In this document: positions 3,042 through 30,385 of the stretch, one piece after another | How the letters are laid out: each line of letters starts with the position of its first letter | How positions within the stretch are numbered: the stretch's first letter is position 1 | NCBI GenBank assembly: GCA_038902975.1 | Contig: JBCKMZ010000001.1 | Location: 14,592 to 78,591 of the forward strand | Direction of reading: 5' to 3' | Origin: Polaromonas sp. | GTDB taxonomy: Bacteria > Pseudomonadota > Gammaproteobacteria > Burkholderiales > Burkholderiaceae_C | Length of the DNA: 64,000 nucleotides | Program-made: the position numbers and the translations under genes | Notes under the pieces: generated by a model | What the model was told of the DNA's origin: nothing | Seen by the model: only the letters and a program-made list of their open reading frames with translations | Database searches by the model: none

Positions 3042-4379
3042 TCAGTTCGCTGGACTTGAAGGTAAATGCGGGGCCTGAAGACGCGGTATGCCGACCTTCA
3101 AAATACCGCCCACTGTGTAGAACGAACCGAACACCACGATTCTATCAGCGGGGTCTGCCCGCTCTATCGCGGCTTGCAGGGCCAACTCGGGGCTTGAATA
3201 AGCCTGGGCCGTGACATCTTTACGGCTATTGATGACCTCCCATTTACCCTTAAGCGCCTCGCCAGTGGCAGCACGCGGCGTGGGTAAATCGGTGAAATAC
3301 CAACTGTCGATCAGCGGTGTAATCCGCGCCAGCATGGACGCTACGTCTTTGTCGGCCATGGCACCAAACACCGCGTGAGTAGTAGGGAAAAAACCCATCG
3401 CGTCGAGGTTTTCTGTCAGCGCGGCGACTGAATGCGGGTTGTGCGCGACATCCAGCACCAGCATCGGCTGGCCGGGAATGATTTGAAAACGCCCCGGCAG
3501 CTCGACCCTAGACAAGCCCACGCGCACCGCCTGCGCCGTCACAGGCAACAAATCACGCACCGCTGTCAACGCCGCCAACACACCTGATGCGTTCATCAAT
3601 TGATTGGCACCACGCAGCGCCGGGTAGGCAAGGCCGGCATACCGTCTGCCCCGGCCTGCCCATGCCCACTGCTGCTTGTCGCCCGAAAAATTAAAGTCCT
3701 TGCCAAGGCGCCACAAATCGGCCCCTATGCTTGCAGCGTGGTCAATGATGCTTTGCGGCGGCATCGGGTCGCTCACCACCACGGGTTTGCCGGCGCGCAT
3801 GATGCCGGCTTTTTCAAACCCGATCAACTCACGCGTGTTGCCCAGATACTCCATGTGGTCAAGGTCAATGCTGGTGATGACAGCGCAATCGGCATCCAGA
3901 ATGTTCACCGCATCCAGCCGCCCGCCCAGACCGACCTCAAGAATCACCACATCAAGTTTTGCGCCCGCCAGCAGCTTCAAAATGGCCAGCGTGGTGAACT
4001 CAAAATAGGTCAACGAAATCTCTTGCCCAGCAAGCCGCGCAGTCTCAACCGCTGCAAAGCCATCGAGAAACCCGGCAGCAGTGACCACATCACCGCGCAC
4101 CCGGCAGCGCTCCTCAAAATGCACCAGATGCGGCGAGGTGTAAAGGCCAGTGCGGTAACCCGCCTCGAGCAAAATCGCCTCCAGCATGGCGCAAGTAGAG
4201 CCCTTGCCGTTGGTACCGGCCACCGTAATCACCGGGCAATCAAAGTGAAGCCCGATGCGCTCAGCCACCGCCTTGACGCGGTGCAGCCCCATGTCAATGC
4301 CCACAGGGTGCAGCCGCTCGCAATGCGCCAGGCAGTCATTAAGGGTGTCAAGTTTGGCTGGAGATTGCAGATTTTTCAT
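3042..4379 (-). CDS. folC: Folylpolyglutamate/dihydrofolate synthase
   Basis: VAGTNGKGST, EVGLGGRLDAVN, LDVAHNP; start taken at ATG 4379. Confidence 0.97.
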   Translation of the reverse strand: MKNLQSPAKLDTLNDCLAHCERLHPVGIDMGLHRVKAVAERIGLHFDCPVITVAGTNGKGSTCAMLEAILLEAGYRTGLYTSPHLVHFEERCRVRGDVVTAAGFLDGFAAVETARLAGQEISLTYFEFTTLAILKLLAGAKLDVVILEVGLGGRLDAVNILDADCAVITSIDLDHMEYLGNTRELIGFEKAGIMRAGKPVVVSDPMPPQSIIDHAASIGADLWRLGKDFNFSGDKQQWAWAGRGRRYAGLAYPALRGANQLMNASGVLAALTAVRDLLPVTAQAVRVGLSRVELPGRFQIIPGQPMLVLDVAHNPHSVAALTENLDAMGFFPTTHAVFGAMADKDVASMLARITPLIDSWYFTDLPTPRAATGEALKGKWEVINSRKDVTAQAYSSPELALQAAIERADPADRIVVFGSFYTVGGILKVGIPRLQAPHLPSSPAN

Positions 4380-4498
4380 ACTGCCGCTATTGTCGTCGCA
4401 GGCGTTGGATTCTATTTCAGGTCTCAATCCGTTTTGAGCATCTGAAATGTCGATTTTTTAGGTGCTTTTAGGGCTGAGTGCAGTGCAGAGTGCAGTGC

Positions 4499-4558
4499 TT
4501 GACACCCCCTCCCGCCAGGAATAGCCTCCCTGAGTCCGCAGTGCGTTCTCAGGGAGGC
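4499..4558 (+). promoter_or_regulatory. Putative sigma70 promoter with an overlapping 11-bp perfect inverted repeat
   Basis: TTGACA (4499-4504), 17-nt spacer, TAGCCT (4522-4527); gcctccctgag (4524-4534) pairs with ctcagggaggc (4548-4558). Confidence 0.55.
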
Positions 4559-4599
4559 CCCTGGGGAGGATGCCGTGTACATAAGAAGGAGAAATTACC

Positions 4600-16242: not shown

Positions 16243-16323
16243 GTCCTCCAGCTTCCTGTTTTCCGCTTGAGCACCTGCTCACCTGCTGTGCCCGGGCGGT
16301 TTTTCATGTTGTCTGGAGGTCTC

Positions 16324-17652
16324 ATGTTTTCTTTCTCTCTTGTCTGTCGGGCTTGCCTGATTCGGGGCCTGGCGCTTTCTGCGTTGCTGATCCACATCGC
16401 GATGCCGCTGTACGCCGCAGAGCCCTTACCCGAGCCCTTGTCTTTACAGGAAGCGCAGCGACTAGCTGCCGCGCGTTCCCGGCAACTGCTAGCCCAGGAT
16501 GCAGTCACCAGGGCAGCGCGCGACATGGCGGTGGCGGCCGGCCAACTGCCCGACCCGGTGCTCAAGATCGGCATCGACAACCTACCCGTCACGGGTCCCG
16601 ACCGGCTGAGCCTGACGCGCGATTTCATGACCCAGGGCCGTATTGGCGTGATGCAGGAAATCACCCGCTCCGACAAGCTGCGGCTGCGTGCCGAGCGCTT
16701 TGAGCGCAGCGCACAAAAATCATTAGCCGAAAAGAACGTCACCGTCGCTGCCATTGGGCGCGACACTGCCCTGGCCTGGCTTGACCTGTATTACGCCCAA
16801 GCGATGGCGGCTGTCGTTGCCGAGCAAGGTAGTCAAGCCAGGCTCGAGGCGGAAGCGGCCGAAGGTGCCTATCGCGCGGGCCGCGGCAACCAGGCAGACA
16901 TCTTTGCCGCGCGCAGCGCCCTGGTCAGTTTTGAGAACCTCACCAGTGAAGTCCGGCGCCGCGTGTTGAACGCCAAGACCATGCTCGCGCGTTGGATTGG
17001 CAGTGCTGCAGACCTGCCGCTGGCCGGAAAACCTGCCACCGAGGTGATTCGTCTGGACCCAGCGACGCTGGAGACGCAGCTAACGCATGATCCGCAAATC
17101 GCTGTCGCGACTAGACAGATAGAAATTGCTGAAAGCGAAGCCAAGCTTGCACAAGCGAACAAAAAATCCGACTGGACTGTAGAAGTCGCCTACCAGCAAC
17201 GCGGCTCGGCCTACTCCAACTTGGTTTCAGTCGGCGTAACGATTCCATTCCAATGGGATCCGAAAAACCGGCAGGACCGGGAATTGTCAGCCACGCTGGC
17301 ACTGCTCGAGCAAGCCAAAGCCGAGCGCGATGAAATGCTGCGCGACCGTATTGCGCAGATACGCACGATGATCAACGAATGGGAAAACAATCGCGAACGC
17401 TCGGCACGCTTTGAAGGCGAACTAATCCCGCTTGCCAGCAAGCGCACGCTGGCAGCCATTACCGCCTACCGCGGCGGCAAGGCGACGCTGACCGAGGTAT
17501 TGGCGGGGCGTCGAAACGAGATCGACGTGCGCATCCAGGCATTGCAACTGCAAACCGACACAGCCCGGCTCTGGGCGCAACTCAACTTTCTTTTCCCGAC
17601 CGATGGCGTTGCAGCGCACACGATTATGAATACCAACAAGGACACGAAATGA
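16324..17652 (+). CDS. Heavy-metal RND outer-membrane factor (CusC-like)
   Basis: GGAGG RBS before ATG 16324; AGQLPDPVL, AYRAGRG; precedes cusB. Confidence 0.9.
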   Translation: MFSFSLVCRACLIRGLALSALLIHIAMPLYAAEPLPEPLSLQEAQRLAAARSRQLLAQDAVTRAARDMAVAAGQLPDPVLKIGIDNLPVTGPDRLSLTRDFMTQGRIGVMQEITRSDKLRLRAERFERSAQKSLAEKNVTVAAIGRDTALAWLDLYYAQAMAAVVAEQGSQARLEAEAAEGAYRAGRGNQADIFAARSALVSFENLTSEVRRRVLNAKTMLARWIGSAADLPLAGKPATEVIRLDPATLETQLTHDPQIAVATRQIEIAESEAKLAQANKKSDWTVEVAYQQRGSAYSNLVSVGVTIPFQWDPKNRQDRELSATLALLEQAKAERDEMLRDRIAQIRTMINEWENNRERSARFEGELIPLASKRTLAAITAYRGGKATLTEVLAGRRNEIDVRIQALQLQTDTARLWAQLNFLFPTDGVAAHTIMNTNKDTK

Positions 17653-19241
17653 AACCTAACAAACTCATCCTGGCGCTGGCCGCGGCCGGACTTGTAGGCG
17701 CACTCGGCTACGGAATCTATTTGCTGGGTATGGACCAAGGCATGAAAATGGCCGCCACTATGCCAGCGGCGACAGATAAATCAGCCGGCGGCGGCGCTCA
17801 GGATGCCGGAAGCTCCGACAAAAAGGTTTTGTACTGGCACGATCCAATGGTGCCAGGCCAGAAGTTCGACAAGCCCGGCAAATCTCCCTTTATGGACATG
17901 CAACTTGTTCCCGTCTATGCGGGGGATGCGGGAGACGAAGGCAAGGTCAGCATCAGCCCCCGCGTCCAACAAAACCTGGGCATCCGCACGGCCGAAGTCA
18001 CCAAAGGAACACTGGATGCGGCCGTGACCGCCGTCGGTAGCATCGCCTATAACGACCGCGACATGGTGCTGGTGCAGGCCCGCAGCAACGGATTTGTCGA
18101 AAAGCTGTATGCGCGTGCTGTGCTCGACCCGGTAAAGAAGGGCCAGCCATTGGCAGAGCTGTATGTGCCCGAATGGATCGCAGCGCAAGAAGAATACCTG
18201 TCCGTCAAACGCATGGGCAATGAACCTGGCATGGATACCCTGCTCGACGGCGCACGCCAGCGCATGCGCCTGGTTGGCATGGAAGACGAGCATATCCGTC
18301 AGGTGACGTCCAGCGGCAAGGTGCAGCCGCGCCTGACCATTACTGCCCCGATTGGCGGCGTCATAGCCGAACTGGCGGTGCGCGAAGGCATGACGGTGAT
18401 GTCCGGCGCTCCGCTATTTCGCATCAACGCTACCAGCACGGTCTGGGTCAATGCCGAAGTCCCGGAAAATCTGTCGGCACAGGTGCGTCCCGGCAACAGG
18501 GTGGAAGCGCGTACGCCTTCGCTGCTAGGTGCCGTATTCAAAGGCAAAGTCAGCGCCTTGCTGCCTGAAGTGAACGCCTCTACCCGCACATTGAAAGCAC
18601 GTATCGAGCTGGTCAACCCGAAAGGCAAATTGGTGCCGGGCATGTTTGCCACGATCGATTTTTCACCGGCTGCCCGCCAGGAGGTGCTGCTGGTGCCCAC
18701 TGAAGCAGTGATCCAGACCGGCAAGCGAAGCGTCGTGATGGTCGCCGAGGGCGAAGGCAAGTTTGCAGCGGTCGACGTCGAAACCGGCACCGAGAGCAAT
18801 GGCAAGACCGAGATCCGCAAAGGCTTGACAGCCGGGCAAAAGGTTGTCGTATCCGGCCAGTTCCTGATCGATTCGGAAGCCAGTCTGAAAGGCACCATTA
18901 CCCGTATGGCAGATATGCCGGTCGCCGAAGGAGCCAAAGGCAACAAGACTGACAAACCTACGGCCGCTCAAGCGCACCGTGGCGAAGGCAAAGTCGAAAA
19001 AATCGACAAGGCCGAGATCACGCTTTCGCATGGCCCGATTCCGGGCTTGCAATGGGGACCGATGACGATGGGCTTTAAGCTGCCAGCCGGCGGCTTACCC
19101 AAGAATGTCGCAGTCGGCGATACCGTTGTATTCGAGGTTCGTGGGCTCAAGGACGGCATGTTCGAGATCGCCAGCATCTCCCGCACCGCCGCTGCCCCAA
19201 AGCCCGAAATGAAATCGAATAAAGCCGGAGCCGCGAAATGA
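17649..19241 (+). CDS. cusB: RND periplasmic adaptor with N-terminal metal-binding and C-terminal CusF-like domains
   Basis: YWHDPM...[13 protein letters not shown]; [10 protein letters not shown]; [16 protein letters not shown]. Confidence 0.93.
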
Positions 19242-22200
19242 TTGCCAAACTGATCCGCTGGTCCATCGTCAATCGTTTTTTGGTTTTGCTGGCGACGCTG
19301 ATGCTCACCGCTTGGGGCCTCTGGTCGATGTCAAAAACACCGTTTGACGCCATCCCCGACCTATCTGATGTGCAAGTCATCATCCGCACCAGCTACCCGG
19401 GGCAGGCGCCGCAGATTGTCGAGAACCAGGTGACTTATCCGCTGACAACCACCATGCTGTCGGTGCCGGGCGCCAAAACCGTACGCGGCTATTCGTTCTT
19501 CGGCGATTCGTTCGTCTATATCTTGTTTGAGGATGGCACTGATCCGTATTGGGCGCGTTCTCGCGTGCTCGAATACCTGAACCAGGTCCAGTCGCGCCTG
19601 CCGCCGCAAGCAAAAACCGCGCTCGGACCGGATGCGACAGGTGTCGGCTGGGTCTATCAATATGCATTGGTTGACCGCAGCGGCAAGATGGACTTATCGC
19701 AGTTACGCGCGCTGCAAGACTGGTTTTTAAAGTACGAGCTTAAAACAGTCGTGAATGTCTCCGAAGTCGCCAGCATCGGCGGCATGGTGCGCCAGTATCA
19801 AATCGTGCTCGACCCGGACAAGATGCGGGCATACAACATCCCGCACGGCAAGATAATCGAAGCGGTCCAGAAAGCCAACCAGGAAACCGGCGGCTCGGTG
19901 CTGGAACTGGGCGAAGCCGAGTACATGGTGCGTGTCTCAGGTTATCTAAAAACGCTCGATGACTTCCGCAAGATTCCACTGATGACAACCGATGCCGGCG
20001 TGTCGGTACGCCTGGGGGATGTGGCACGCATCCAGGTGGGCCCGGAAATGCGGCGCGGCATCGCCGACTTGAACGGTGAAGGCGAAGTCGCCGGTGGCGT
20101 CGTTATCATGCGCTTCGGCAAGAACGCGCTGGAGACGATTGATGCGGTCAAGGCCAAGCTGGAGCAACTCAAACCTGGGCTGCCTCCGGGAGTGGAAATT
20201 ATCCCGGTCTATGACCGCTCGCACCTGATCCAACGCGCGGTAAGAAACCTCGGAGAAAAGCTGGTCGAGGAATTCATTGTCGTGGCGATCGTTTGTGCCA
20301 TCTTCCTGTTTCACCTGCGCTCGGCGTTAGTCGCCATCGTCACGCTGCCAATTGGCATCCTGCTGGCCTTTATCGTCATGTATTACCAGGGAGTCAACGC
20401 CAATATTCTGTCACTCGGCGGCATTGCGATTGCCGTGGGTGCGATGGTCGATGCGGCGGTGGTCATGATAGAGAATGCGCACAAACACATCGAGGCTTGG
20501 AATCATGCGAATCCCGGCAAGGAGTTAAAAGGAGAAGCCCATTGGCATGTCATTGGTGATGCCGCCGCCGAAGTCGGCCCCGCCCTGTTCTTCGCGCTGC
20601 TCATCATTGTCCTATCATTCATCCCCGTGTTCACGCTGGAAGCGCAGGAAGGACGTTTGTTCTCGCCGTTGGCCTTCACCAAAACCTATGCGATGGCAGC
20701 GGCAGCCGGACTGGCCGTCACGCTGATCCCGGTATTGATGGGCTATCTGATACGCGGACGCATACCCGCTGAGCAAAAAAATCCGCTCAACCGCTTTCTG
20801 ATTGCACTGTACCGGCCAATGCTCGAAGGCGTTTTGCGCTTTCCAAAGATGACGCTCGTCGCAGCAGCGGTGGTCGCGGTTGTGACCATCTGGCCGATGT
20901 CGCGTCTCGGTGGTGAATTCATGCCGCCGCTCGACGAAGGCGATTTGCTCTATATGCCATCGGCGCTGCCGGGCCTGTCTGCCGGCAAGGTGTCGGAATT
21001 ATTGCAACAGACCGACCGTCTGATCAAGACTGTGCCCGAAGTTCAAAGCGTATTTGGCAAGGCTGGACGGGCTGAGTCTGCGACAGATCCGGCGCCGCTG
21101 GAAATGTTTGAGACGACCATCCAGTTCAAGCCCAAGGACCAATGGCGCGCTGGCATGACAACCGAGAAGCTGGTCGAAGAACTTGACCGCATCGTCAAGG
21201 TTCCGGGCTTGTCGAACATCTGGGTGCCACCGATTCGCAACCGCATCGACATGTTGTCAACCGGCATCAAGAGCCCGGTGGGTGTCAAGGTTGCAGGGGC
21301 AAGTCTGCAGGAAATCGACCGTATTACAGGCGACATCGAACGCGTCGTTAAAAAGGTGCCCGGCGTGTCGTCGGCCCTGGCCGAACGGTTGACCGGAGGA
21401 CGGTATATTGACATCAATATCGACCGGAATGCCGCTGCCCGTTACGGACTGAACATCGCCGACGTGCAAAGCATCGTCTCGGCAGGCATTGGTGGCGACA
21501 ACATCGGGGAAACGGTCGAAGGCCTGCAACGCTTCCCGATCAATGTGCGCTATCCCCGGGAAGTGCGGGATTCAGTCGAAAAACTGCGCCAGCTATCGGT
21601 TCTGACTGACCGCGGTGCGCAGATTCGCCTGGGTGACGTCGCCAATATTCGCATCAATGACGGCCCGCCGATGTTAAGAAGCGAGAACGCACGCCTGTCG
21701 GGATGGGTGTATGTGGATATTCGTGACCGGGACCTGAGCTCCGCGGTGCGCGACATGCAGCAGGCTGTTGCGAGGGAAGTCAAACTGCCGGCGGGCTACT
21801 CGGTAGCGTGGTCCGGGCAATTCGAATACCTGGAGCGCGCCACCGCGAAATTGAAGATGGTGGTGCCGGCAACGCTGCTCATCATTTTTGTGCTTCTTTA
21901 TATAACCTTCAAGCGCTTTGACGAAGCGGCGCTGATCATGGCAACACTGCCGTTTGCACTGGTAGGCGCCATCTGGTTGCTGTGGGCCCTGGGCCACAAC
22001 CTGTCAGTGGCCAGCGGCGTCGGCTTCATTGCCTTGGCCGGCGTCTCAGCCGAGTTTGGCGTCATCATGCTGGTGTACCTGAAGCACGCGTGGGAAAAGC
22101 GCCTGGCCGACGGTAAAGGCTCCGAGGCCGATCTGCTCGACGCGATCCGCGAAGGCGCGGTGCTGCGCGTGCGGCCCAAGGCCATGACGGTAGCGGTGAT

Positions 22201-22432
22201 CATCGCCGGTCTCCTACCCATCATGTACGGCACCGGCACCGGCTCCGAAGTCATGCAACGGATTGCCGCGCCGATGGTCGGCGGCATGATCACTGCGCCT
22301 CTGTTGTCAATGTTTGTGGTGCCAGCTGTCTATCTGCTTCTGCGCCGACGCCAGGCGCGCAAGGCACTGGCTGCATCTCTGCAGAGTGATCAAGCTCGGC
22401 ACTCTGCTAATGATTCGCCCGTAAATCCGTGA
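19238..22432 (+). CDS. cusA: CusA-family Cu/Ag RND efflux permease
   Basis: [44 protein letters not shown]. Confidence 0.97.
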
Positions 22433-22497: not shown

Positions 22498-22986
22498 TCA
22501 GTGCTTATGCTCGGCAGCCTTGCCAGCAACAGCGCCTGGCGCTGCCAAGCCAACCGGCAACACCAAATCCAGCTTGCTCTGAACGCCCTTCGCGTCCTTA
22601 AAGCGCAAGGTCATGGGCATGGTGCTGTCTTTCGCGAGCGGTGCTTTCAAGTCCATCAACATGATGTGATAGCCGCCGGACTTGAGCTGCACGGTTTGGC
22701 CAGCAGGCAAGTCAAGACTGGGTACCGCCCGCATTTTCATGATATCGTTTTCGATCTTCATCTCATGCACTTCGGCCACACCCGCTGCGGGTGACGACAC
22801 ACCAACCAGCCGCGTACCCTCTTTGGCCGTGAGGTTCATAAAAGCGCCTGTACCCTTTTGGCCCTGCACGGTTGCCCGCACCCATGCGCCCTCGACTTTA
22901 ACGGCGGCGGTTTGTGCTGCGACCAACCCCGTAGCGACTATGAAGGCTACAGCTAGGCCAGCTTTTACAAACAGATGTGATGTCAT
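22498..22986 (-). CDS. Copper chaperone PCu(A)C
   Basis: AWVRAT, EVHEM...MKMR, GGYHIMLMDL. Confidence 0.93.
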   Translation of the reverse strand: MTSHLFVKAGLAVAFIVATGLVAAQTAAVKVEGAWVRATVQGQKGTGAFMNLTAKEGTRLVGVSSPAAGVAEVHEMKIENDIMKMRAVPSLDLPAGQTVQLKSGGYHIMLMDLKAPLAKDSTMPMTLRFKDAKGVQSKLDLVLPVGLAAPGAVAGKAAEHKH

Positions 22987-23049: not shown

Positions 23050-24360
23050 TTATAGCAAACAAGACCTGAATCCGCAAAAAATGTCGTCTCTATCAGGCTG
23101 GTAGAAATTGCGGTAGCTGGGGCTTTTCATACGGGAGCGGGTTGCAAACGAGCCTCCGCGCAGCACCTTGTGGCTACCAAACCAGGGGGCTGAATAGTCC
23201 GTATACGGGTCTGGTTTGAAACTGCGGTTGCCATCATTGTCGGGGTAGGGGTTGAAAGTGCTGCCCGTCCACTCCCACACATCGCCCCACCTGAAGCCGC
23301 GCCTTGATGCCGTATGCGCCGCGACTTCCCATTCAACTTCAAAGGGCAAACGCCGCCCGGCCCAGCGGCACCAGGCATCGGCTTCATACCAGCTCATGTG
23401 CATGGCCGGTTGCACGCCCTGCATACGCATGGCCTGACCGAAACGGGTCTGCATGACTGCGCCACTGGCTACGCCTATCTGGTCTACGTAGCGCGGGCCT
23501 CTTCTTCCTTCCTCGGCGCTGATCTTTTGCAACCACTGCCAGCCGCTTGGCCGCCACAGCTCGGCGCGGTCATAGCCGCCGTCGTCAACAAACTCGACAA
23601 ACTGCGCCCAGGTCACGGGCTGGGCATCAATTTCAAATTCAGGTACTTGCACGGCGTGCAGCGGGCGCTCGTTGTCAAACGCAAAACCGGCATCCGGTAC
23701 GCTTCCCATTTGCCAGGTGATGGCGGGTATCAGCAGCGGCTCGCGCACGGCCATCGGCTGTAGGGTAAACACCGTTTGCAACGCCTTGCCGAGTGGCAGG
23801 CCCAGCGTCTGGGCGGTGTTCACCAGCGCCTCGCCGTGCATGTCTTCATGGAACAGACACAGGCGGTAAAAGTAAAGCGCGTCGTCGCTGTCGTCGGCTT
23901 TATGCAGCAGGTCCAGCGTGCTTTCCAGGGTGTCGAGCAGGTAAGCGCGAATATGGGCAACGTCGGGCAAGGCTAGGCCCCAGCGGGTGTTGTGGGCCAC
24001 GCGGCTGGAGTCCCACCAGATGTCGGCATTGGGCTCAATCGAGGCCAGCCGCGCGTGGTCGGGTGCGCAGCGGGTGCCCAAAGCGCGCTGCAGGTTGCGG
24101 CCGATCCACCACTCCTGAAACCAGCCCACATGGCCCAGCTCCCATAACGGCGGATTGACGCTAGCGAGTTGCGGAACGACAAAATTTGTAGCCTCAAGCG
24201 CCTCTTGATACTGCGCAAAAAGGTGCAGCGTATGATTGCGCGCATCCATCAGCGCCAGTGACAACTCCTCCTTACCCGCACTGCGCATCAGGGGGGAATC
24301 AATCAAGGCCGCAGAAGGTGCAGCAGATGAATCAGATGACGAAGAAGGATCGGTTGGCAA
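23050..24360 (-). CDS. senA: Selenoneine synthase SenA (EgtB-like DinB plus FGE-sulfatase protein)
   Basis: NPPLWELGHVGWFQE, FHEDMHGE iron ligands, FDNERP, RLPFEVEWE, GDVWEWT, YRNFY; divergent from senB-selD; start codon uncertain. Confidence 0.88.
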   Translation of the reverse strand: MPTDPSSSSDSSAAPSAALIDSPLMRSAGKEELSLALMDARNHTLHLFAQYQEALEATNFVVPQLASVNPPLWELGHVGWFQEWWIGRNLQRALGTRCAPDHARLASIEPNADIWWDSSRVAHNTRWGLALPDVAHIRAYLLDTLESTLDLLHKADDSDDALYFYRLCLFHEDMHGEALVNTAQTLGLPLGKALQTVFTLQPMAVREPLLIPAITWQMGSVPDAGFAFDNERPLHAVQVPEFEIDAQPVTWAQFVEFVDDGGYDRAELWRPSGWQWLQKISAEEGRRGPRYVDQIGVASGAVMQTRFGQAMRMQGVQPAMHMSWYEADAWCRWAGRRLPFEVEWEVAAHTASRRGFRWGDVWEWTGSTFNPYPDNDGNRSFKPDPYTDYSAPWFGSHKVLRGGSFATRSRMKSPSYRNFYQPDRDDIFCGFRSCLL

Positions 24361-24378
24361 AATAATGAAGTTGTCTCA

Positions 24379-25377
24379 ATGAGGGTCGTGCTGGTAAGCC
24401 CAGCGACACAAGAAGCCAACAACGGTAACTGGCATACGGCGCACCGTTGGTCGCAATTTTTGTCGCAAGGCCTGGATCATTGTGACACTGCCATCGTGAC
24501 CCAGTGGCCTAGTGCGCATGGTAAGCCTGCTACGCCTGATGCCGATTCAAAACAAGCAGCTGATCTAATGATTGCCCTGCACGCCAAGCGTTCAGCGGCA
24601 TCGATTGCGGCATGGGCCACCGCCTGCCCCGCCAAGCCGCTGATTCTGGTGCTGACAGGTACCGACCTATACCGGGACATTCAGCACGACCGACTCGCCC
24701 AACAGTCCCTTGCCCTCGCCAGCCATATCGTGGTGCTGCAAGAGGCCGGGTTGGCTGCACTACCAGAAGCGTATCGCGCAAAGACGCATGTGATTTACCA
24801 ATCGGCCCGCAGGCTCAAACCGGCAGTGAAAGCTAGGCATCGGTTTGTGGCGCTGATGGTCGGCCACCTGCGGGATGAAAAAGACCCGCTGACGTTTATG
24901 AAAGCGGCGCGCTGTGTGGCCAGCAGCACGATTCATTTCGAGCAGATCGGCATGGCGCTAGAGCCAGACTTTGGGCAGGTGGCGCTGGAAACTGCCCGGC
25001 TGAATTCAGGCTATCGCTGGCTCGGCGGTTTGCCCAGAGCCGCTACCCGCCAGCGCATCAAGCGTGCCCATGTGCTGGTGAACGGCTCGAAGATGGAGGG
25101 CGGTGCCCACGTCATTCTGGAGGCCGTACAGTCTGGCACGCCGGTGCTGGCATCACGCATTGACGGCAACGTCGGTATGCTGGGCAAACATTATTCGGGT
25201 TACTTTGAACTCGGTCATGCCGCGCAACTGGCAAAACTGGTGCAGCGCTGCGCGTTAGAACCCGATTTTCTGGCCCTGCTGCAAAGCCAATGCGGGCAAC
25301 GTGCCCATTGGTTTGAGCCGGCCCTCGAAAAGCGCCTTGTTTTAAACTTGGTCACCTCCGCATTAGCTACGCATTAA
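24379..25377 (+). CDS. senB: Selenosugar synthase SenB (GT-B glycosyltransferase)
   Basis: NNGNWHTAHRW, ALHAKRS, LVLTGTDLYRDI, GHLRDEKDP, MEGGAHV; immediately upstream of selD. Confidence 0.9.
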   Translation: MRVVLVSPATQEANNGNWHTAHRWSQFLSQGLDHCDTAIVTQWPSAHGKPATPDADSKQAADLMIALHAKRSAASIAAWATACPAKPLILVLTGTDLYRDIQHDRLAQQSLALASHIVVLQEAGLAALPEAYRAKTHVIYQSARRLKPAVKARHRFVALMVGHLRDEKDPLTFMKAARCVASSTIHFEQIGMALEPDFGQVALETARLNSGYRWLGGLPRAATRQRIKRAHVLVNGSKMEGGAHVILEAVQSGTPVLASRIDGNVGMLGKHYSGYFELGHAAQLAKLVQRCALEPDFLALLQSQCGQRAHWFEPALEKRLVLNLVTSALATH

Positions 25378-25405
25378 CCACGCACGAAAATATCTGAAAG
25401 CCCCC

Positions 25406-26470
25406 ATGAACGCACCCGACAAACTCACTACCCTCGCCGTGCCACGGCTCACCAGCCTGTCACACGGCGGCGGCTGTGGCTGCAAAATTGCACCCGGCGT
25501 GCTGAGTGAAATCCTTAAAAATTCCAGCAATCTGCCGATACCCAAAGAGCTACTGGTAGGCATAGAAACCGCTGACGACGCAGCCGTGTATTGGCTGAAC
25601 GAGAACCAGGCGCTGATTGCCACGACCGACTTTTTCATGCCCATCGTCGATGACCCGTATGACTTTGGCCGCATCGCCGCGACCAATGCCATCAGCGACG
25701 TGTATGCCATGGGCGGCACGCCGATCATGGCGTTGGCGCTGGTTGCTATGCCGATCAATGTGCTGCCGCTGGAGACCATAGGCGCTATCTTGCGCGGTGG
25801 GCAAGACGTTTGCCGCGATGCGGGCATCCCAATTGCCGGCGGCCACACGATTGATTCAGTCGAGCCGATTTATGGCTTGGCGGTGCTCGGTCTGGTGCAC
25901 CCGTCGCGGGTCAAGAAAAATTCGGGCGCCCGGGTCGGCGATGTACTGATCCTGGGCAAACCACTGGGTGTCGGTATCCTGTCGGCAGCGCTGAAGAAGG
26001 ATGCGCTCAGCCCCGAGGGCTATGCGCGCATGATCGCCGTGACCACCCAGCTCAACAAACCGGGCATCACGCTGGCGCAGATGGACGGCGTGCATGCGCT
26101 GACCGACATCACCGGCTTCGGCCTGCTCGGCCATGGGCTGGAACTGGCGCGCGGCGCCAAACTGAAAATGCAGTTGCAGATGGACCAGATACCGTTGTTG
26201 CCCGGGGTGCTTGAGTTGGCCGCTCAAGGCATGGTCACCGGCGCATCAGGCCGCAACTGGGCCAGCTACGGCAGCGAAGTCATTCTGCCGGCCGGCATCA
26301 GCCCGGCCCACCAGGCCCTGCTCAGCGACCCACAGACCAGCGGCGGCCTGCTGGTGTCCTGCAGCCCCGACATCGCCGACCAGGTTCTGACTTGCTTTCA
26401 CAGCCAGGGCTTTGGCGACGCGCGCGCCATTGGCCGCATGACAGAAGGCAGCGGCGTGCAGATCATCTAA
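25406..26470 (+). CDS. selD: Selenophosphate synthetase (SenC), Cys-type
   Basis: SHGGGCGCKI, DDAAVY, TTDFFMP, DITGFGLLGH, DPQTSGGLL. Confidence 0.97.
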   Translation: MNAPDKLTTLAVPRLTSLSHGGGCGCKIAPGVLSEILKNSSNLPIPKELLVGIETADDAAVYWLNENQALIATTDFFMPIVDDPYDFGRIAATNAISDVYAMGGTPIMALALVAMPINVLPLETIGAILRGGQDVCRDAGIPIAGGHTIDSVEPIYGLAVLGLVHPSRVKKNSGARVGDVLILGKPLGVGILSAALKKDALSPEGYARMIAVTTQLNKPGITLAQMDGVHALTDITGFGLLGHGLELARGAKLKMQLQMDQIPLLPGVLELAAQGMVTGASGRNWASYGSEVILPAGISPAHQALLSDPQTSGGLLVSCSPDIADQVLTCFHSQGFGDARAIGRMTEGSGVQII

Positions 26471-26686
26471 AATCGACCTGTTCCCGGCGTAACGCACCCG
26501 TTTGGGGTCGCGCCAGTCACGCACAAGCCCGGCTGCTACGGGATAACACCCTCAAAAAGCTGTCAGCTTGCCTTCTATAGTCCTTTATAAAATTTAAACC
26601 GCGTGGACTCGCACCCGACATGCCTCCCTGCTTGGGGGGTTGCCGGATGATTTTCATTGCGTGGACGCTTTTTTCGTGGAGACAAC

Positions 26687-27355
26687 ATGACCTTTCTTCT
26701 TTCCCTGTCGCAGCTGATCGACAGGATCAGCACCTGGATCGGCATCTCGACCATGTGGCTGATTCTGGCCGCCACCCTCATCAGCGCGGGCAACGCCATC
26801 GTGCGCAAGGCTTTTGACATGAGCTCCAACGGCCTGCTGGAAATCCAGTGGTACCTGTTTGCCGCCGTGTTCATGCTGGGGGCTGGTTATGGTTTCCTGA
26901 AAAATACGCATGTCCGCATTGACTTCATTTCATCACGCCTGAGCGACCGCGCCCGCAACTGGATCGACGTGTTCGGCATCGTCGCCGTGCTGCTGCCGTT
27001 TTGCGTGCTGATGATCTCGCTGAGCTGGGGCCCATTCGTGGACGCCTACGCCAACCAGGAAATGTCGCAAAACGCCGGCGGCCTGATGCGCTGGCCGGTG
27101 TACATGCTGGTGCCGCTGGGCTTCTCGCTCTTGGCCCTGCAGGCGGTGTCCGAGCTGATCAAGCGGCTGGCCTTTCTGATGGGCCGTGGGCATGACGCAC
27201 TGTCGGACGAAGATACCAAGTCACTCAAGGTCGAGGCCTTTCAGATGGGCCGCGGGCAAGACGTGCTGTCGGGCGAAGATGCCAAGTCCGATGAACAAAA
27301 GCCCCTTGAAGAACTCGAAATCGTTGCCGCGCGCAAATTGGCTGGAGAAGCATAA
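26687..27355 (+). CDS. dctQ: TRAP transporter small permease
   Basis: LEIQWYLFAAVFMLGAGY, HVRID; four TM helices; ATG 26687 after GGAG. Confidence 0.9.
   Translation: MTFLLSLSQLIDRISTWIGISTMWLILAATLISAGNAIVRKAFDMSSNGLLEIQWYLFAAVFMLGAGYGFLKNTHVRIDFISSRLSDRARNWIDVFGIVAVLLPFCVLMISLSWGPFVDAYANQEMSQNAGGLMRWPVYMLVPLGFSLLALQAVSELIKRLAFLMGRGHDALSDEDTKSLKVEAFQMGRGQDVLSGEDAKSDEQKPLEELEIVAARKLAGEA
27169..27288 (+). repeat. In-frame diverged tandem duplication (period 66 bp) in the dctQ tail
   Basis: AFLMGRGHDALSDEDTKS / AFQMGRGQDVLSGEDAKS. Confidence 0.85.
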
Positions 27356-29170
27356 ATGCAAACCACCTTCCTCGCACTAAATTTTGCGCCCCTGATGTTC
27401 GCCGGGCTGTTGGTCCTGCTGCTGACCGGCTTTCCGGTCGCTTTCGGGCTGGCCGCCACCGGCCTAGCCTTTGGTTTCATCGGCATGGAAGCCGGCATTT
27501 TCCCGGCCGCGCTGTTCGGCGCGCTGCCGTCGCGCATCTTCGGCATCATGCAGAACGACACGCTGCTGGCGATTCCCTTCTTCGTCTTCATGGGCATCAT
27601 TCTGGAGCGCTCCGGGATGGCCGAGGATCTGCTCGAGACGGTGGGCCAGGTTTTTGGTCCACTGCGCGGCGGCCTGGCGATTGCCGTGATCCTGGTGGGC
27701 GCGCTGCTGGCGGCGACCACCGGTGTCGTGGCAGCCGCCGTGATCTCCATGGGCCTGATCTCGCTGCCCATCATGCTGCGCTATGGCTACAGCCAGGTGA
27801 TCGCCACCGGCGTCATCACGGCCTCGGGCACGCTGGCGCAGGCAATTCCGCCGTCGCTGGTGCTGATCGTGCTGGCCGACCAGCTCGGCCGCTCGGTGGG
27901 CGACATGTACGCCGGCGCGCTGCTGCCCGGCCTGCTGCTGGTGGGTCTGTACGTCCTGTTCATCGTGGTAGTAGCAATCGTGCGGCCTGCCATGGTGCCA
28001 GCCCTGCCGCCCGAGGCCCGCATCTACCGCGAGGCCAGTGGCCACTCGGGACACCGTTCGCTGCTGGTGCTGCTGCTACTCTGCGTGGCGGTGGGCTTTG
28101 CCTGGTCGCGCGTGCACAACGACCTGCTGACCGCCTGGCTGCAACGACCACTACCTGCGGCAGGAGATGAGATCTTCATCCTGTCGATGACACTGGCCTC
28201 ACTGCTGGGTCTGAGCTTGGCGATCGTCAACCACGTCACCGGCCTGAAGCTGCTCTCCAAGCTGGCCGAGCAGGTCACCTTCGTGCTGATGCCGCCGCTG
28301 GTTCTCATTTTCCTGGTGCTGGGCACCATTTTCCTGGGCATTGCGACGCCCACCGAGGGCGGCGCCATGGGAGCTTTGGGCGCGCTGATCCTGGCGCTGG
28401 GCAAGAGGCGGCTGAACTTTAGCCTGCTCAAGCAGGCGCTGGACAACACCGCCAAGCTGGCCTCGTTTGTGCTATTCATCTTGATCGGCGCCACGGTCTT
28501 CAGCTTCACCTTCAATGCCGCCGACGGCCCTATCTGGATCGAGCACCTGTTCACCGGCATTCCCGGCGGCGCTTGGGGCTTCCTGATCGTGGTGAACATT
28601 CTGGTGTTCATTCTGGGCATGTTCATCGACTTCTTCGAAATCGCCTTCATCGTGATCCCGCTGCTGGCCCCGGTGGCCGCAAAAATCCTGCCCAGCATTG
28701 TTCCCGGCATGACCGAGGATGACGCCATGATCTGGTTCGGCGTGATGATCGCGATGAATCTGCAGACTTCCTTCCTGACGCCGCCGTTCGGCTTTGCCCT
28801 GTTCTACCTGCGCAGCGTGGCAGCCAAGAAGGACTATAAGGACCGCGTCACCGGCCAGACCATTCCGGCGGTGACAACGACGCAGATCTACAAGGGCTCG
28901 ATCGCTTTCATCATCCTGCAAATCTGCATGATAGCGGCCATCATGCTGTTCCCCAATCTGGTCACCGGCGGCATCGAGAAGACCGAAAAACTCACCGCCG
29001 AGCAGGTGATGGAGCAACTGGCGATGCCCCAGGCAGACGATGAGCCGGCCGCTGACCCCGCGACTGAGCCGGCTTCTGGAGCGGCCTCCGAAGCGTCTGC
29101 TAGCGAGAGCAAAGAAGAAGACCCGATGAAGGCCCTGCTCGAAGCCATGCAGAAGCAAGACAAGAAGTAG
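27356..29170 (+). CDS. dctM: TRAP transporter large permease
   Basis: LLAIPFF, ASGTLAQAIPPS, ATPTEGG, FLTPPFGFALFYL. Confidence 0.95.
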   Translation: MQTTFLALNFAPLMFAGLLVLLLTGFPVAFGLAATGLAFGFIGMEAGIFPAALFGALPSRIFGIMQNDTLLAIPFFVFMGIILERSGMAEDLLETVGQVFGPLRGGLAIAVILVGALLAATTGVVAAAVISMGLISLPIMLRYGYSQVIATGVITASGTLAQAIPPSLVLIVLADQLGRSVGDMYAGALLPGLLLVGLYVLFIVVVAIVRPAMVPALPPEARIYREASGHSGHRSLLVLLLLCVAVGFAWSRVHNDLLTAWLQRPLPAAGDEIFILSMTLASLLGLSLAIVNHVTGLKLLSKLAEQVTFVLMPPLVLIFLVLGTIFLGIATPTEGGAMGALGALILALGKRRLNFSLLKQALDNTAKLASFVLFILIGATVFSFTFNAADGPIWIEHLFTGIPGGAWGFLIVVNILVFILGMFIDFFEIAFIVIPLLAPVAAKILPSIVPGMTEDDAMIWFGVMIAMNLQTSFLTPPFGFALFYLRSVAAKKDYKDRVTGQTIPAVTTTQIYKGSIAFIILQICMIAAIMLFPNLVTGGIEKTEKLTAEQVMEQLAMPQADDEPAADPATEPASGAASEASASESKEEDPMKALLEAMQKQDKK

Positions 29171-29223
29171 CTGGCATCCAGCCACACGTCACCCGCACCG
29201 GGTGGCGCCGTCAACTGACACAT

Positions 29224-29254
29224 AAAAAAAGCCCGTCACATGAACGGGCTTTTT
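29224..29254. terminator. Bidirectional intrinsic terminator
   Basis: aaaaaaagcccgt-cacatga-acgggcttttt between convergent dctM and dctP. Confidence 0.85.
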
Positions 29255-29302
29255 GAGTGCTAAAGAGGCCGCCACCGGCGGCTCCTTTGCAGGGCTTGGA
29301 AA

Positions 29303-30385
29303 TTACAGTTTTTGCGCCTGCATGAACTGGTCGAAACGCATTTCGGTAAAGCGGAACCACAGGTTCTGCTCGCGACGGAACACCGACCAGTCGTCGTAAA
29401 TCTTCTTCCAGTCGGGGTTGCTGGCCGACAGCTCGGCGTACAGCGCCTGTGTTTCCTTGAAAGCCAGTTCCATCACGTCCTTGGGGAAAGGCAAAACCTT
29501 GACCTTGAGCGCCACCAGTTGCTTGAGGGCTTCCGGGTTCTTCGCATCGTACTTGGCCTGCATGTCGGTGTGGACAAAAGCTGCAGCGGCTTCCAGGATG
29601 GCCTTGTTCTCGGGCGAGAGCTTATCGTAAGCGGTCTTGTTGACGTAAGCATCAAGCTGCGGGCCGCCTTCCCACCAGCCGGGGTAGTGGTAGACCGGTG
29701 CCACTTTGTGAAAGCCCAGCTTCAGGTCGTCGTAGGGACCGACCCACTCGGCCGCGTCAATCGTGCCTTTTTCCAGTGCCTGATAAATCTCGCCACCAGG
29801 AATGTTCTGCGCCACCACGCCCATACGGCCGAGCACCTTGCCGGCGAAGCCGCCTGCGCGGAACTTCAGGCCTTTCATGTCCTTGACCGACTTGATTGGC
29901 TTGCGGAACCAGCCGCCCATTTGCACGCCGGTGTTGCCCATGGGGAAGTTGACGATGTTGTACTTGGCATAGAACTCGCGCATCAGCTTGCCGCCGTTGC
30001 CCTGGTACATCCAGGCCGTCTGCTGCCGACTGTTCAGGCCGAAGGGAATGGCACAGCCAAAGGCAAAGGCGTCGTTCACGCCGAAGAAGTAGTACGGCGC
30101 GGTATGCACCATTTCAGTGGTGCCTTTGGAGATGTTGTCGATCATGCCGGCAATCGCCGGCATCAGCTCGCCGGGCCCATGCACGGAAATAATAAACTTG
30201 CCGCCAGACATGTCGCTGACTTTTTTGGCAAAGGTTTCAGCACCGCCAAAAATGGTGTCCAGCACCTTGGGGAAGCTGGAAGCCAGACGCCAGCGAACAA
30301 CCTCCTGCGCATGCACCGCAGGCGCAACGCCGGCTGCCAGGACGCCGGCAATGCCGGCATTTTTAATAAGGGAACGACGATCCAT
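29303..30385 (-). CDS. dctP: TRAP substrate-binding protein (Tat-exported, TakP-like)
   Basis: DRRSLIK, GNTGVQMGGWFRK, AAEWVGPYDD, YPGWWEGG. Confidence 0.93.
   Translation of the reverse strand: MDRRSLIKNAGIAGVLAAGVAPAVHAQEVVRWRLASSFPKVLDTIFGGAETFAKKVSDMSGGKFIISVHGPGELMPAIAGMIDNISKGTTEMVHTAPYYFFGVNDAFAFGCAIPFGLNSRQQTAWMYQGNGGKLMREFYAKYNIVNFPMGNTGVQMGGWFRKPIKSVKDMKGLKFRAGGFAGKVLGRMGVVAQNIPGGEIYQALEKGTIDAAEWVGPYDDLKLGFHKVAPVYHYPGWWEGGPQLDAYVNKTAYDKLSPENKAILEAAAAFVHTDMQAKYDAKNPEALKQLVALKVKVLPFPKDVMELAFKETQALYAELSASNPDWKKIYDDWSVFRREQNLWFRFTEMRFDQFMQAQKL

Follow-up and report, generated by a model that had tools for sequence, protein, structure and literature searches.

What does the divergent gene trio at 23050-26470 make in the 64,000-nucleotide stretch of Polaromonas DNA that we analyzed (the window)? 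A scan for open reading frames returns three there, at 23050-24360 on the minus strand and at 24379-25377 and 25406-26470 on the plus strand. A sequence-only reading of the window had described their products as an EgtB-like DinB/FGE protein, encoded divergently from a glycosyltransferase and a Cys-type selenophosphate synthetase, and had taken the trio for a pathway to selenoneine, the selenium counterpart of the antioxidant ergothioneine. The coordinates proved exact and the Pfam domains are as described: DinB_2 and FGE-sulfatase in the first product, glycosyltransferase group 1 in the second, and AIRS with AIRS_C in the third. With high confidence, we predict that 23050-26470 is a sen (selenoneine) biosynthetic cluster of Polaromonas; the basis is membership in profile hidden Markov model (HMM) families, together with active-site residues and a gene order that are both conserved, and an egtD elsewhere in the genome. 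The pathway assignment is borne out by the curated SenA and SenB models, whose cut-offs are passed, by structure matches that agree with them, and by the composite sequence motif of SenA. The cluster is an ordinary copy of the published bacterial selenoneine pathway, and as such is already known.

The senA gene (23050..24360, minus strand) is predicted to encode a selenoneine synthase, a non-haem iron selenoxide synthase of 436 residues when read from TTG 24360. The protein scores 503.3 bits on the SenA model NF041186 (cut-off 420), while its scores on the EgtB model TIGR03440 (251.6 bits, cut-off 360) and on the OvoA N-terminal model (72.6 bits, cut-off 400) fall below the respective cut-offs. 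The sequence-only reading had proposed this comparison of models, and had named a grouping with canonical EgtB as the result that should overturn it; the protein does not belong to the canonical EgtB family. The best solved-structure match is the SenA of Variovorax paradoxus (8k5i, 8ryz; E 1e-107), and the next structural relatives are OvsA (8ux5, E 7e-54) and EgtB (1e-43). Active-site residues were mapped through printed alignments, by hand to 8ryz in the case of SenA, and the numbering was confirmed by script. The iron triad H77/H171/H175 corresponds to H71/H167/H171 of the V. paradoxus enzyme and the catalytic Y386 to its Y363; the hercynine contacts are represented by Y389, N418 and F419, and the residues on the selenosugar side by N69, E74, H123, R126, Y420 and R424, all of them counterparts of active-site residues reported for V. 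paradoxus SenA (PMC11237966). The composite motif xNEH--HRHxHYYN(F/Y)(F/Y)R, by which the discoverers of the pathway tell SenA apart from EgtB-I, EgtB-II, OvsA and OvoA (PMC11030361), is present in full as N69 E74 H77 / H123 R126 H171. H175 Y386 Y389 N418 F419 Y420 R424, where the choice of the two tyrosines meant by the motif is our inferred assignment. The positions of the thiol-binding Arg87 and Asp416 of EgtB are taken by His123 and Tyr420 in the Polaromonas protein, an exchange to His/Tyr that has been stated for all SenA proteins, and a Ser/Asp pair of EgtB is replaced by Asn69 and Glu74.

The second gene, senB (24379..25377, plus strand), would encode a selenosugar synthase of 332 residues, a Se-glycosyltransferase with the GT-B fold. 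It reaches 417.9 bits on TIGR04348 (cut-off 300), with the next family at 109 bits, and its best solved-structure match is V. paradoxus SenB (8k5u, 8jjq, 8fbx; E 1e-82). The V. paradoxus enzyme has been described with a catalytic Lys158 and with phosphate or selenophosphate contacts at Asn20, His58, Thr83 and Arg155 (PMC11237966). The proposed catalytic lysine is kept as K168 and the contacts as N17, H68, T93 and R165; further conserved residues are G16, T20, G94, Q141, L218, T223, E240, H244 and V245. The selD (senC) gene (25406..26470, plus strand) follows senB after 28 bp, and the two are probably one operon, so that a SenB-type gene is linked here both to selD and, across an 18-bp spacer, to a divergent egtB-like gene. 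Its predicted product of 354 residues, a selenide, water dikinase, scores 537.1 bits on NF002098 (cut-off 299) and 431.5 on TIGR00476, and is closest among solved structures to Escherichia coli SelD (3u0o, E 2e-96). The motif H-G-G-G-C24-G-C26-K27 aligns C24 and K27 to Cys17 and Lys20 of the E. coli enzyme. The catalytic position thus holds cysteine, not selenocysteine, as the sequence-only reading had it, and the protein is of the Cys type and no selenoprotein.

The window holds no egtD, which that reading had also remarked, and we located the gene on another contig (C46) of the same assembly (G000): its product scores 344.5 bits on TIGR03438 (cut-off 290.9) at G000:C46:14205-15089, where it is cut by the contig end. 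This EgtD would be the source of hercynine. By analogy with the biochemistry of V. paradoxus, SelD (SenC) would turn selenide and ATP into selenophosphate, SenB would place the sugar of a UDP-sugar onto selenophosphate and, with cleavage of the Se-P bond, yield a 1-seleno-beta-sugar, and SenA, as an iron- and O2-dependent selenoxide synthase, would join this selenosugar to C2 of hercynine; the resulting selenoxide would then lose its sugar non-enzymatically and be reduced to selenoneine. In V. paradoxus UDP-GlcNAc is the preferred sugar donor, and the pathway has been reconstituted in vitro with the proteins of that organism, the last step being spontaneous.

Several observations weigh against a simple transfer of this pathway to the window. 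SenA carries a six-residue insertion, D374-R379, shortly before the catalytic tyrosine relative to the V. paradoxus enzyme; R220 of SenB replaces the UDP-ribose-contacting His211, which changes one contact; and tblastn identity to the Variovorax proteins is about 42-44% for SenA and 49-53% for SenB. Given the insertion and the arginine, the sugar preference could differ from that of V. paradoxus. A scan with sigma-70 and terminator consensus sequences picked out no usable site at the divergent junction, after senA or after selD. Finally, the window is part of contig C1 of a 67%-complete metagenome-assembled genome (MAG) that comprises 130 contigs and 1.84 Mb, so that genome-wide absences are not proven. 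This limit applies to canonical EgtB, SelA, SelB and SelU, none of which was found above cut-off in the assembly, and to tRNA-Sec, of which there is none among the 27 tRNAs detected in it. The genome search that the sequence-only reading had called for succeeded for egtD and returned nothing above cut-off for selA, selB and selU.

The alternative that survives best concerns selD, and it refines the explanation given above and does not compete with it. The sequence-only reading had presented the three genes as a dedicated pathway, separate from selenocysteine and selenouridine; this stands for the SenA and SenB steps, which are dedicated to selenoneine, but not for the SelD step, which is probably shared with selenouridine synthesis. 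We lean towards the view that the gene is no dedicated senC and encodes a housekeeping selenophosphate synthetase that sits in the sen operon and serves SelU too. The protein is of the canonical PRK00943/E. coli type, a stand-alone type that the discoverers of the pathway count as SenC as well, and shares 70-91% identity with the SelD proteins encoded beside senB at Polaromonas, Rhodoferax and Massilia loci. It is the sole SelD match in its assembly, and exactly one match per genome was found in each of the five genomes G000, G001, G006, G023 and G077; two of these, G006 and G023, share the cluster type of the window, and their single SelD adjoins senB. A second sample of 80 Polaromonas genomes, of which nearly all reach a completeness of 90% or more, includes 79 with SelU and only 5 with SelA. 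Against this stands the window MAG itself, where no selU was found in the 67% that is assembled. Because five genomes have one SelD each and selU occurs in nearly all near-complete Polaromonas genomes, the SelD of the window is most likely the only selenophosphate synthetase of the cell, also feeding tRNA 2-selenouridine synthesis.

A second possibility, which we put forward tentatively and consider rather less likely than its contrary, is that the sub-lineage to which the window belongs has lost canonical EgtB and kept EgtD, so that hercynine would be made only for SenA and selenoneine would be formed without ergothioneine. If true, this would be an autonomous selenium-only branch that does not draw on the pathway to ergothioneine. 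The EgtD of the MAG is 69.5% identical to the type found about 11 kb from EgtB in G006, and 52% identical to the senB-linked type; this closer resemblance to the type of the EgtB locus makes it unlikely that contig C46, past its end, would run into another sen cluster linked to egtD. The synteny of contig C46 with the part of G006 that holds EgtB and EgtD extends as far as an integrase fragment at C46:4008-4574, after which the contig continues with urease genes and no EgtB. The fragment, seen at 4008-4574 of locus L093 (G000:C46), is an open reading frame of 188 residues whose sole domain is the N-terminal, SAM-like one of an integrase of the phage or integron type. The sampled genomes closest to that of the window, G043 (71% complete) and G066 (95% complete), with SenA proteins 94% and 90% identical to its own, yielded no full-length canonical EgtB. 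In G066 there is an unassigned NHISS-like fragment at a contig start. G001 (98% complete) and G048 (93%) have SenA and EgtD and no EgtB, and some Polaromonas thus appear to keep EgtD without EgtB. Elsewhere in the window assembly, at G000:C7:37289-37942, we noted a 674-residue open frame with a strong FGE-sulfatase domain (164.6 bits), which is no EgtB- or SenA-type enzyme.

The start of senA raises a question of its own. The longest open reading frames begin at TTG 24360 for senA and ATG 24379 for senB, leaving a spacer of 18 bp (24361..24378) that we read directly from the sequence. The sequence-only reading had reported this distance and had offered two explanations, a mis-called start or promoters that overlap coding sequence; the comparative evidence favors the second and disfavors the first. 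The 24 senA codons upstream of Met25 (24289..24360, minus strand) comprise a variable Ser/Pro/Ala-rich stretch followed by a conserved I-D-S-P-L. These five residues are encoded ahead of Met25 in all 15 of the 15 Polaromonas loci compared, with codon differences that are synonymous only (ATT/ATC, GAT/GAC, TCC/TCA/TCG, CCC/CCA/CCG and CTG/TTG/CTC), which argues that the upstream codons are translated. The codon preceding them varies by locus between TTG, CTG, ATG and CAG, and is therefore not the general senA start. Further upstream, the open reading frame of each Polaromonas locus opens with TTG or GTG and then [A/P][S/T]D, at a position that ranges from about 22 bp away from the senB start to a 17-bp overlap with it. 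In an alignment of the four closest relatives, the sole indel within the N-terminal senA stretch is of 9 nt and in frame, and the spacer is almost unchanged in three of them, with a 6-nt insertion in the fourth (L008). On this comparison TTG 24360 is quite probably the start of senA.

The opposing reading, that translation begins at ATG 24288 (Met25) and leaves a normal divergent promoter region of 90 bp, is unlikely, though it has points in its favor: the alignments to the SenA HMM and to the V. paradoxus structure begin at residues 24-27, residues 2-18 are of low complexity and variable, and ATG is the commoner start codon. It is at odds with the synonymous-only variation of the I-D-S-P-L codons and with the recurrence of TTG or GTG and its following motif at the start of the frame. 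The sequence ahead of ATG 24288, TCCCCCCTG, lacks a Shine-Dalgarno-like purine run, 18 residues precede the aligned core in the V. paradoxus SenA that was crystallized, and in the Variovorax locus L034 the senA and senB frames lie 2 bp apart. With the start at TTG 24360, the 18-bp spacing would place each promoter inside the first codons of the partner gene and would make the 5' ends of the transcripts overlap. We infer that the senB promoter lies within the 5' codons of senA, since the DNA of 24289..24360 must hold it. If this is true, the senA and senB-selD transcripts would overlap in antisense at their 5' ends, which could couple the expression of the two units. At the junctions, a search of Rfam at E <= 0.1 found neither a riboswitch nor any other known RNA.

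Two further readings would change the product of the cluster. That it makes another selenometabolite, such as ovoselenol through an OvsA-like enzyme or a selenosugar as end product, with a substrate of SenA other than hercynine, is very improbable. OvsA is the next-best structural relative of SenA and also uses a selenosugar made by SenB and SelD, and the module is evolutionarily plastic: at locus L088 (G077:C1:3354000-3364000), in a complete Polaromonas genome, senA (69% identical), a canonical selD and the TRAP transporter genes are kept, while the interval of about 1.85 kb between selD and senA has no recognizable senB and no SenB is found above cut-off in the whole genome. Yet the hercynine triplet Y389/N418/F419 is SenA-like and not the M/Q/A of OvsA, there is neither a methyltransferase domain nor an ovsM-like neighbor, and egtD is in the genome. 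More improbable still, and already refuted for the most part by the HMM scores and the motif comparison, is that the protein at 23050 is an EgtB type I or II sulfoxide synthase making ergothioneine from Cys or gamma-Glu-Cys beside an unrelated glycosyltransferase and SelD, a reading which would suit the DinB_2 and FGE-sulfatase architecture, the EgtB signature domain TIGR04373 and the lack of any other EgtB in the assembly, but which the SenA and EgtB scores, the replaced thiol-binding Arg/Asp and Ser/Asp positions of EgtB-I, the conservation of the senB-selD linkage in many genera and the separate canonical EgtB (about 550 bits) that most Polaromonas genomes have besides SenA all oppose.

The gene order of the selenoneine cluster was mapped across 80 related loci. 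The divergent arrangement of senA with senB-selD is found in most Burkholderiales loci, namely in Polaromonas, Variovorax, Massilia and some Rhodoferax and Limnobacter, and many Rhodoferax and Limnobacter loci have senB-selD without an adjacent senA. In six Rhodoferax loci (L025, L026, L028, L031, L033 and L035) there is no senA within 6 kb upstream of senB-selD; the gene is elsewhere or absent. The closest public loci are from Polaromonas, with SenB proteins 92-93% identical to that of the window.

The genes next to selD on its right encode a TRAP transporter (dctQ, dctM and, convergent with them, dctP; 26657-30385), and iscS and iscR come after these. The start of dctQ is probably ATG 26688, behind GGAG; dctM is unusually long, with 604 residues; and the dctP product is closely related to TakP/SmoM, a binder of alpha-keto acids (2hzk, E 2e-118), and also to 7ug8. 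These genes adjoin sen genes throughout Polaromonas, even where senB-selD (G001) or senB (G077) is missing, and among the 80 related loci no such linkage was seen outside the genus. We rejected the transporter as a transporter of the pathway because its binding protein is of the keto-acid type and the linkage is confined to Polaromonas; for the same reasons we read the adjacency as inherited gene order and not as shared function.

On the other side, downstream of senA, is a copper/silver efflux set that consists of an outer-membrane factor (cusC of cusCBA; 16267-17652), a CusB-like adaptor with a CusF-like tail (17649-19241) and CusA (19238-22432), and then a PCu(A)C copper chaperone (22498-22986, minus strand) on the same strand as senA, which it follows after 63 bp with no evident terminator. 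A partnership of senA with these copper genes is unsupported, as the closest relatives have unrelated DNA to the left of senA. In L009, the closest relative, this flank contains a restriction-modification gene of the MmeI type along with short repeats that are dispersed. The repeats, elements of 60-120 nt at 3796-4238 of L009 beside senA, recur on many contigs of the window genome (C24, C39, C40, C68 and others), and may be attC-like or MITE-like.

The discovery and reconstitution of the sen pathway date from 2022, crystal structures of its enzymes are available and NCBI models name SenA and SenB automatically, so that the cluster of the window adds little that is new. In the literature library that we searched, no paper treats both selenoneine and Polaromonas. 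Cold, oligotrophic waters and ice are typical habitats of Polaromonas, and the capacity for selenoneine, as judged from gene content, looks like a near-core trait of the genus. Our survey sampled 80 genomes of the genus and its counts are given per 81, the unpublished G031 entering the counts only; SenB was found above cut-off in 63 of the 81, EgtD likewise in 63 and canonical EgtB in 51. Further points of local interest are that Polaromonas has two cluster architectures, and that the type seen in the window carries in its operon what is most likely the sole SelD of the cell.

A comparison with known systems begins with the sen cluster of V. paradoxus DSM 30034, encoding SenA, SenB and SenC (Kayrouz et al., 2022, preprint 10.1101/2022.04.13.486033); its discoverers put the number of clusters above 800 and, at a later time, that of SenA sequences at about 1,500. 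The window shares with it the three protein families, the iron triad, tyrosine and selenosugar-hercynine motif of SenA, the lysine of SenB and an egtD outside the cluster, and shares with Variovorax loci such as L034 the divergent senA and senB with abutting starts. The V. paradoxus proteins differ in having no insertion of the D374-R379 type in SenA, and His211 in SenB where the window has R220. The SelD part encoded at the Variovorax loci is about 34% identical to that of the window, lies 1.2 kb beyond senB and, in the loci that we fetched (such as L034), forms the C-terminal half of a fusion of about 790 residues with Pyr_redox_2, in contrast to the stand-alone canonical SelD of the window.

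The EgtB/EgtD pathway to ergothioneine (Mycobacterium type I and type II EgtB) has in common with SenA the fold, the iron triad and the hercynine substrate. Its donor is Cys or gamma-Glu-Cys, whereas that of SenA would be a selenosugar, in keeping with the replaced thiol-binding residues; unlike the ergothioneine pathway, that of the window would need no EgtA, EgtC or EgtE, and its MAG yielded no canonical EgtB. The ovoselenol pathway (OvsA, 8ux5/8u41; PMC11030361) likewise employs SelD, a selenosugar made by SenB and an NHISS enzyme near SenA. OvsA, which occurs mostly in aquatic gammaproteobacteria, selenylates C5 of histidine, and the window protein falls outside the OvsA group, with its Y389, N418 and F419 at the positions that are distinctive of OvsA.

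A further system for comparison is the second architecture within Polaromonas itself, which serves the same pathway. At locus L086 (G001:C98:38000-48000) egtD is co-localized with senB, and the pair is followed by a Pyr_redox_2-SelD fusion of 766 residues; senA lies on another contig (L089, G001:C91), divergent from dctQ at the place where the window type has senB-selD, and so remains beside the TRAP genes at its ancestral site. The window represents the other architecture, in which senA, senB and a canonical selD stand together and egtD is encoded elsewhere in the genome.

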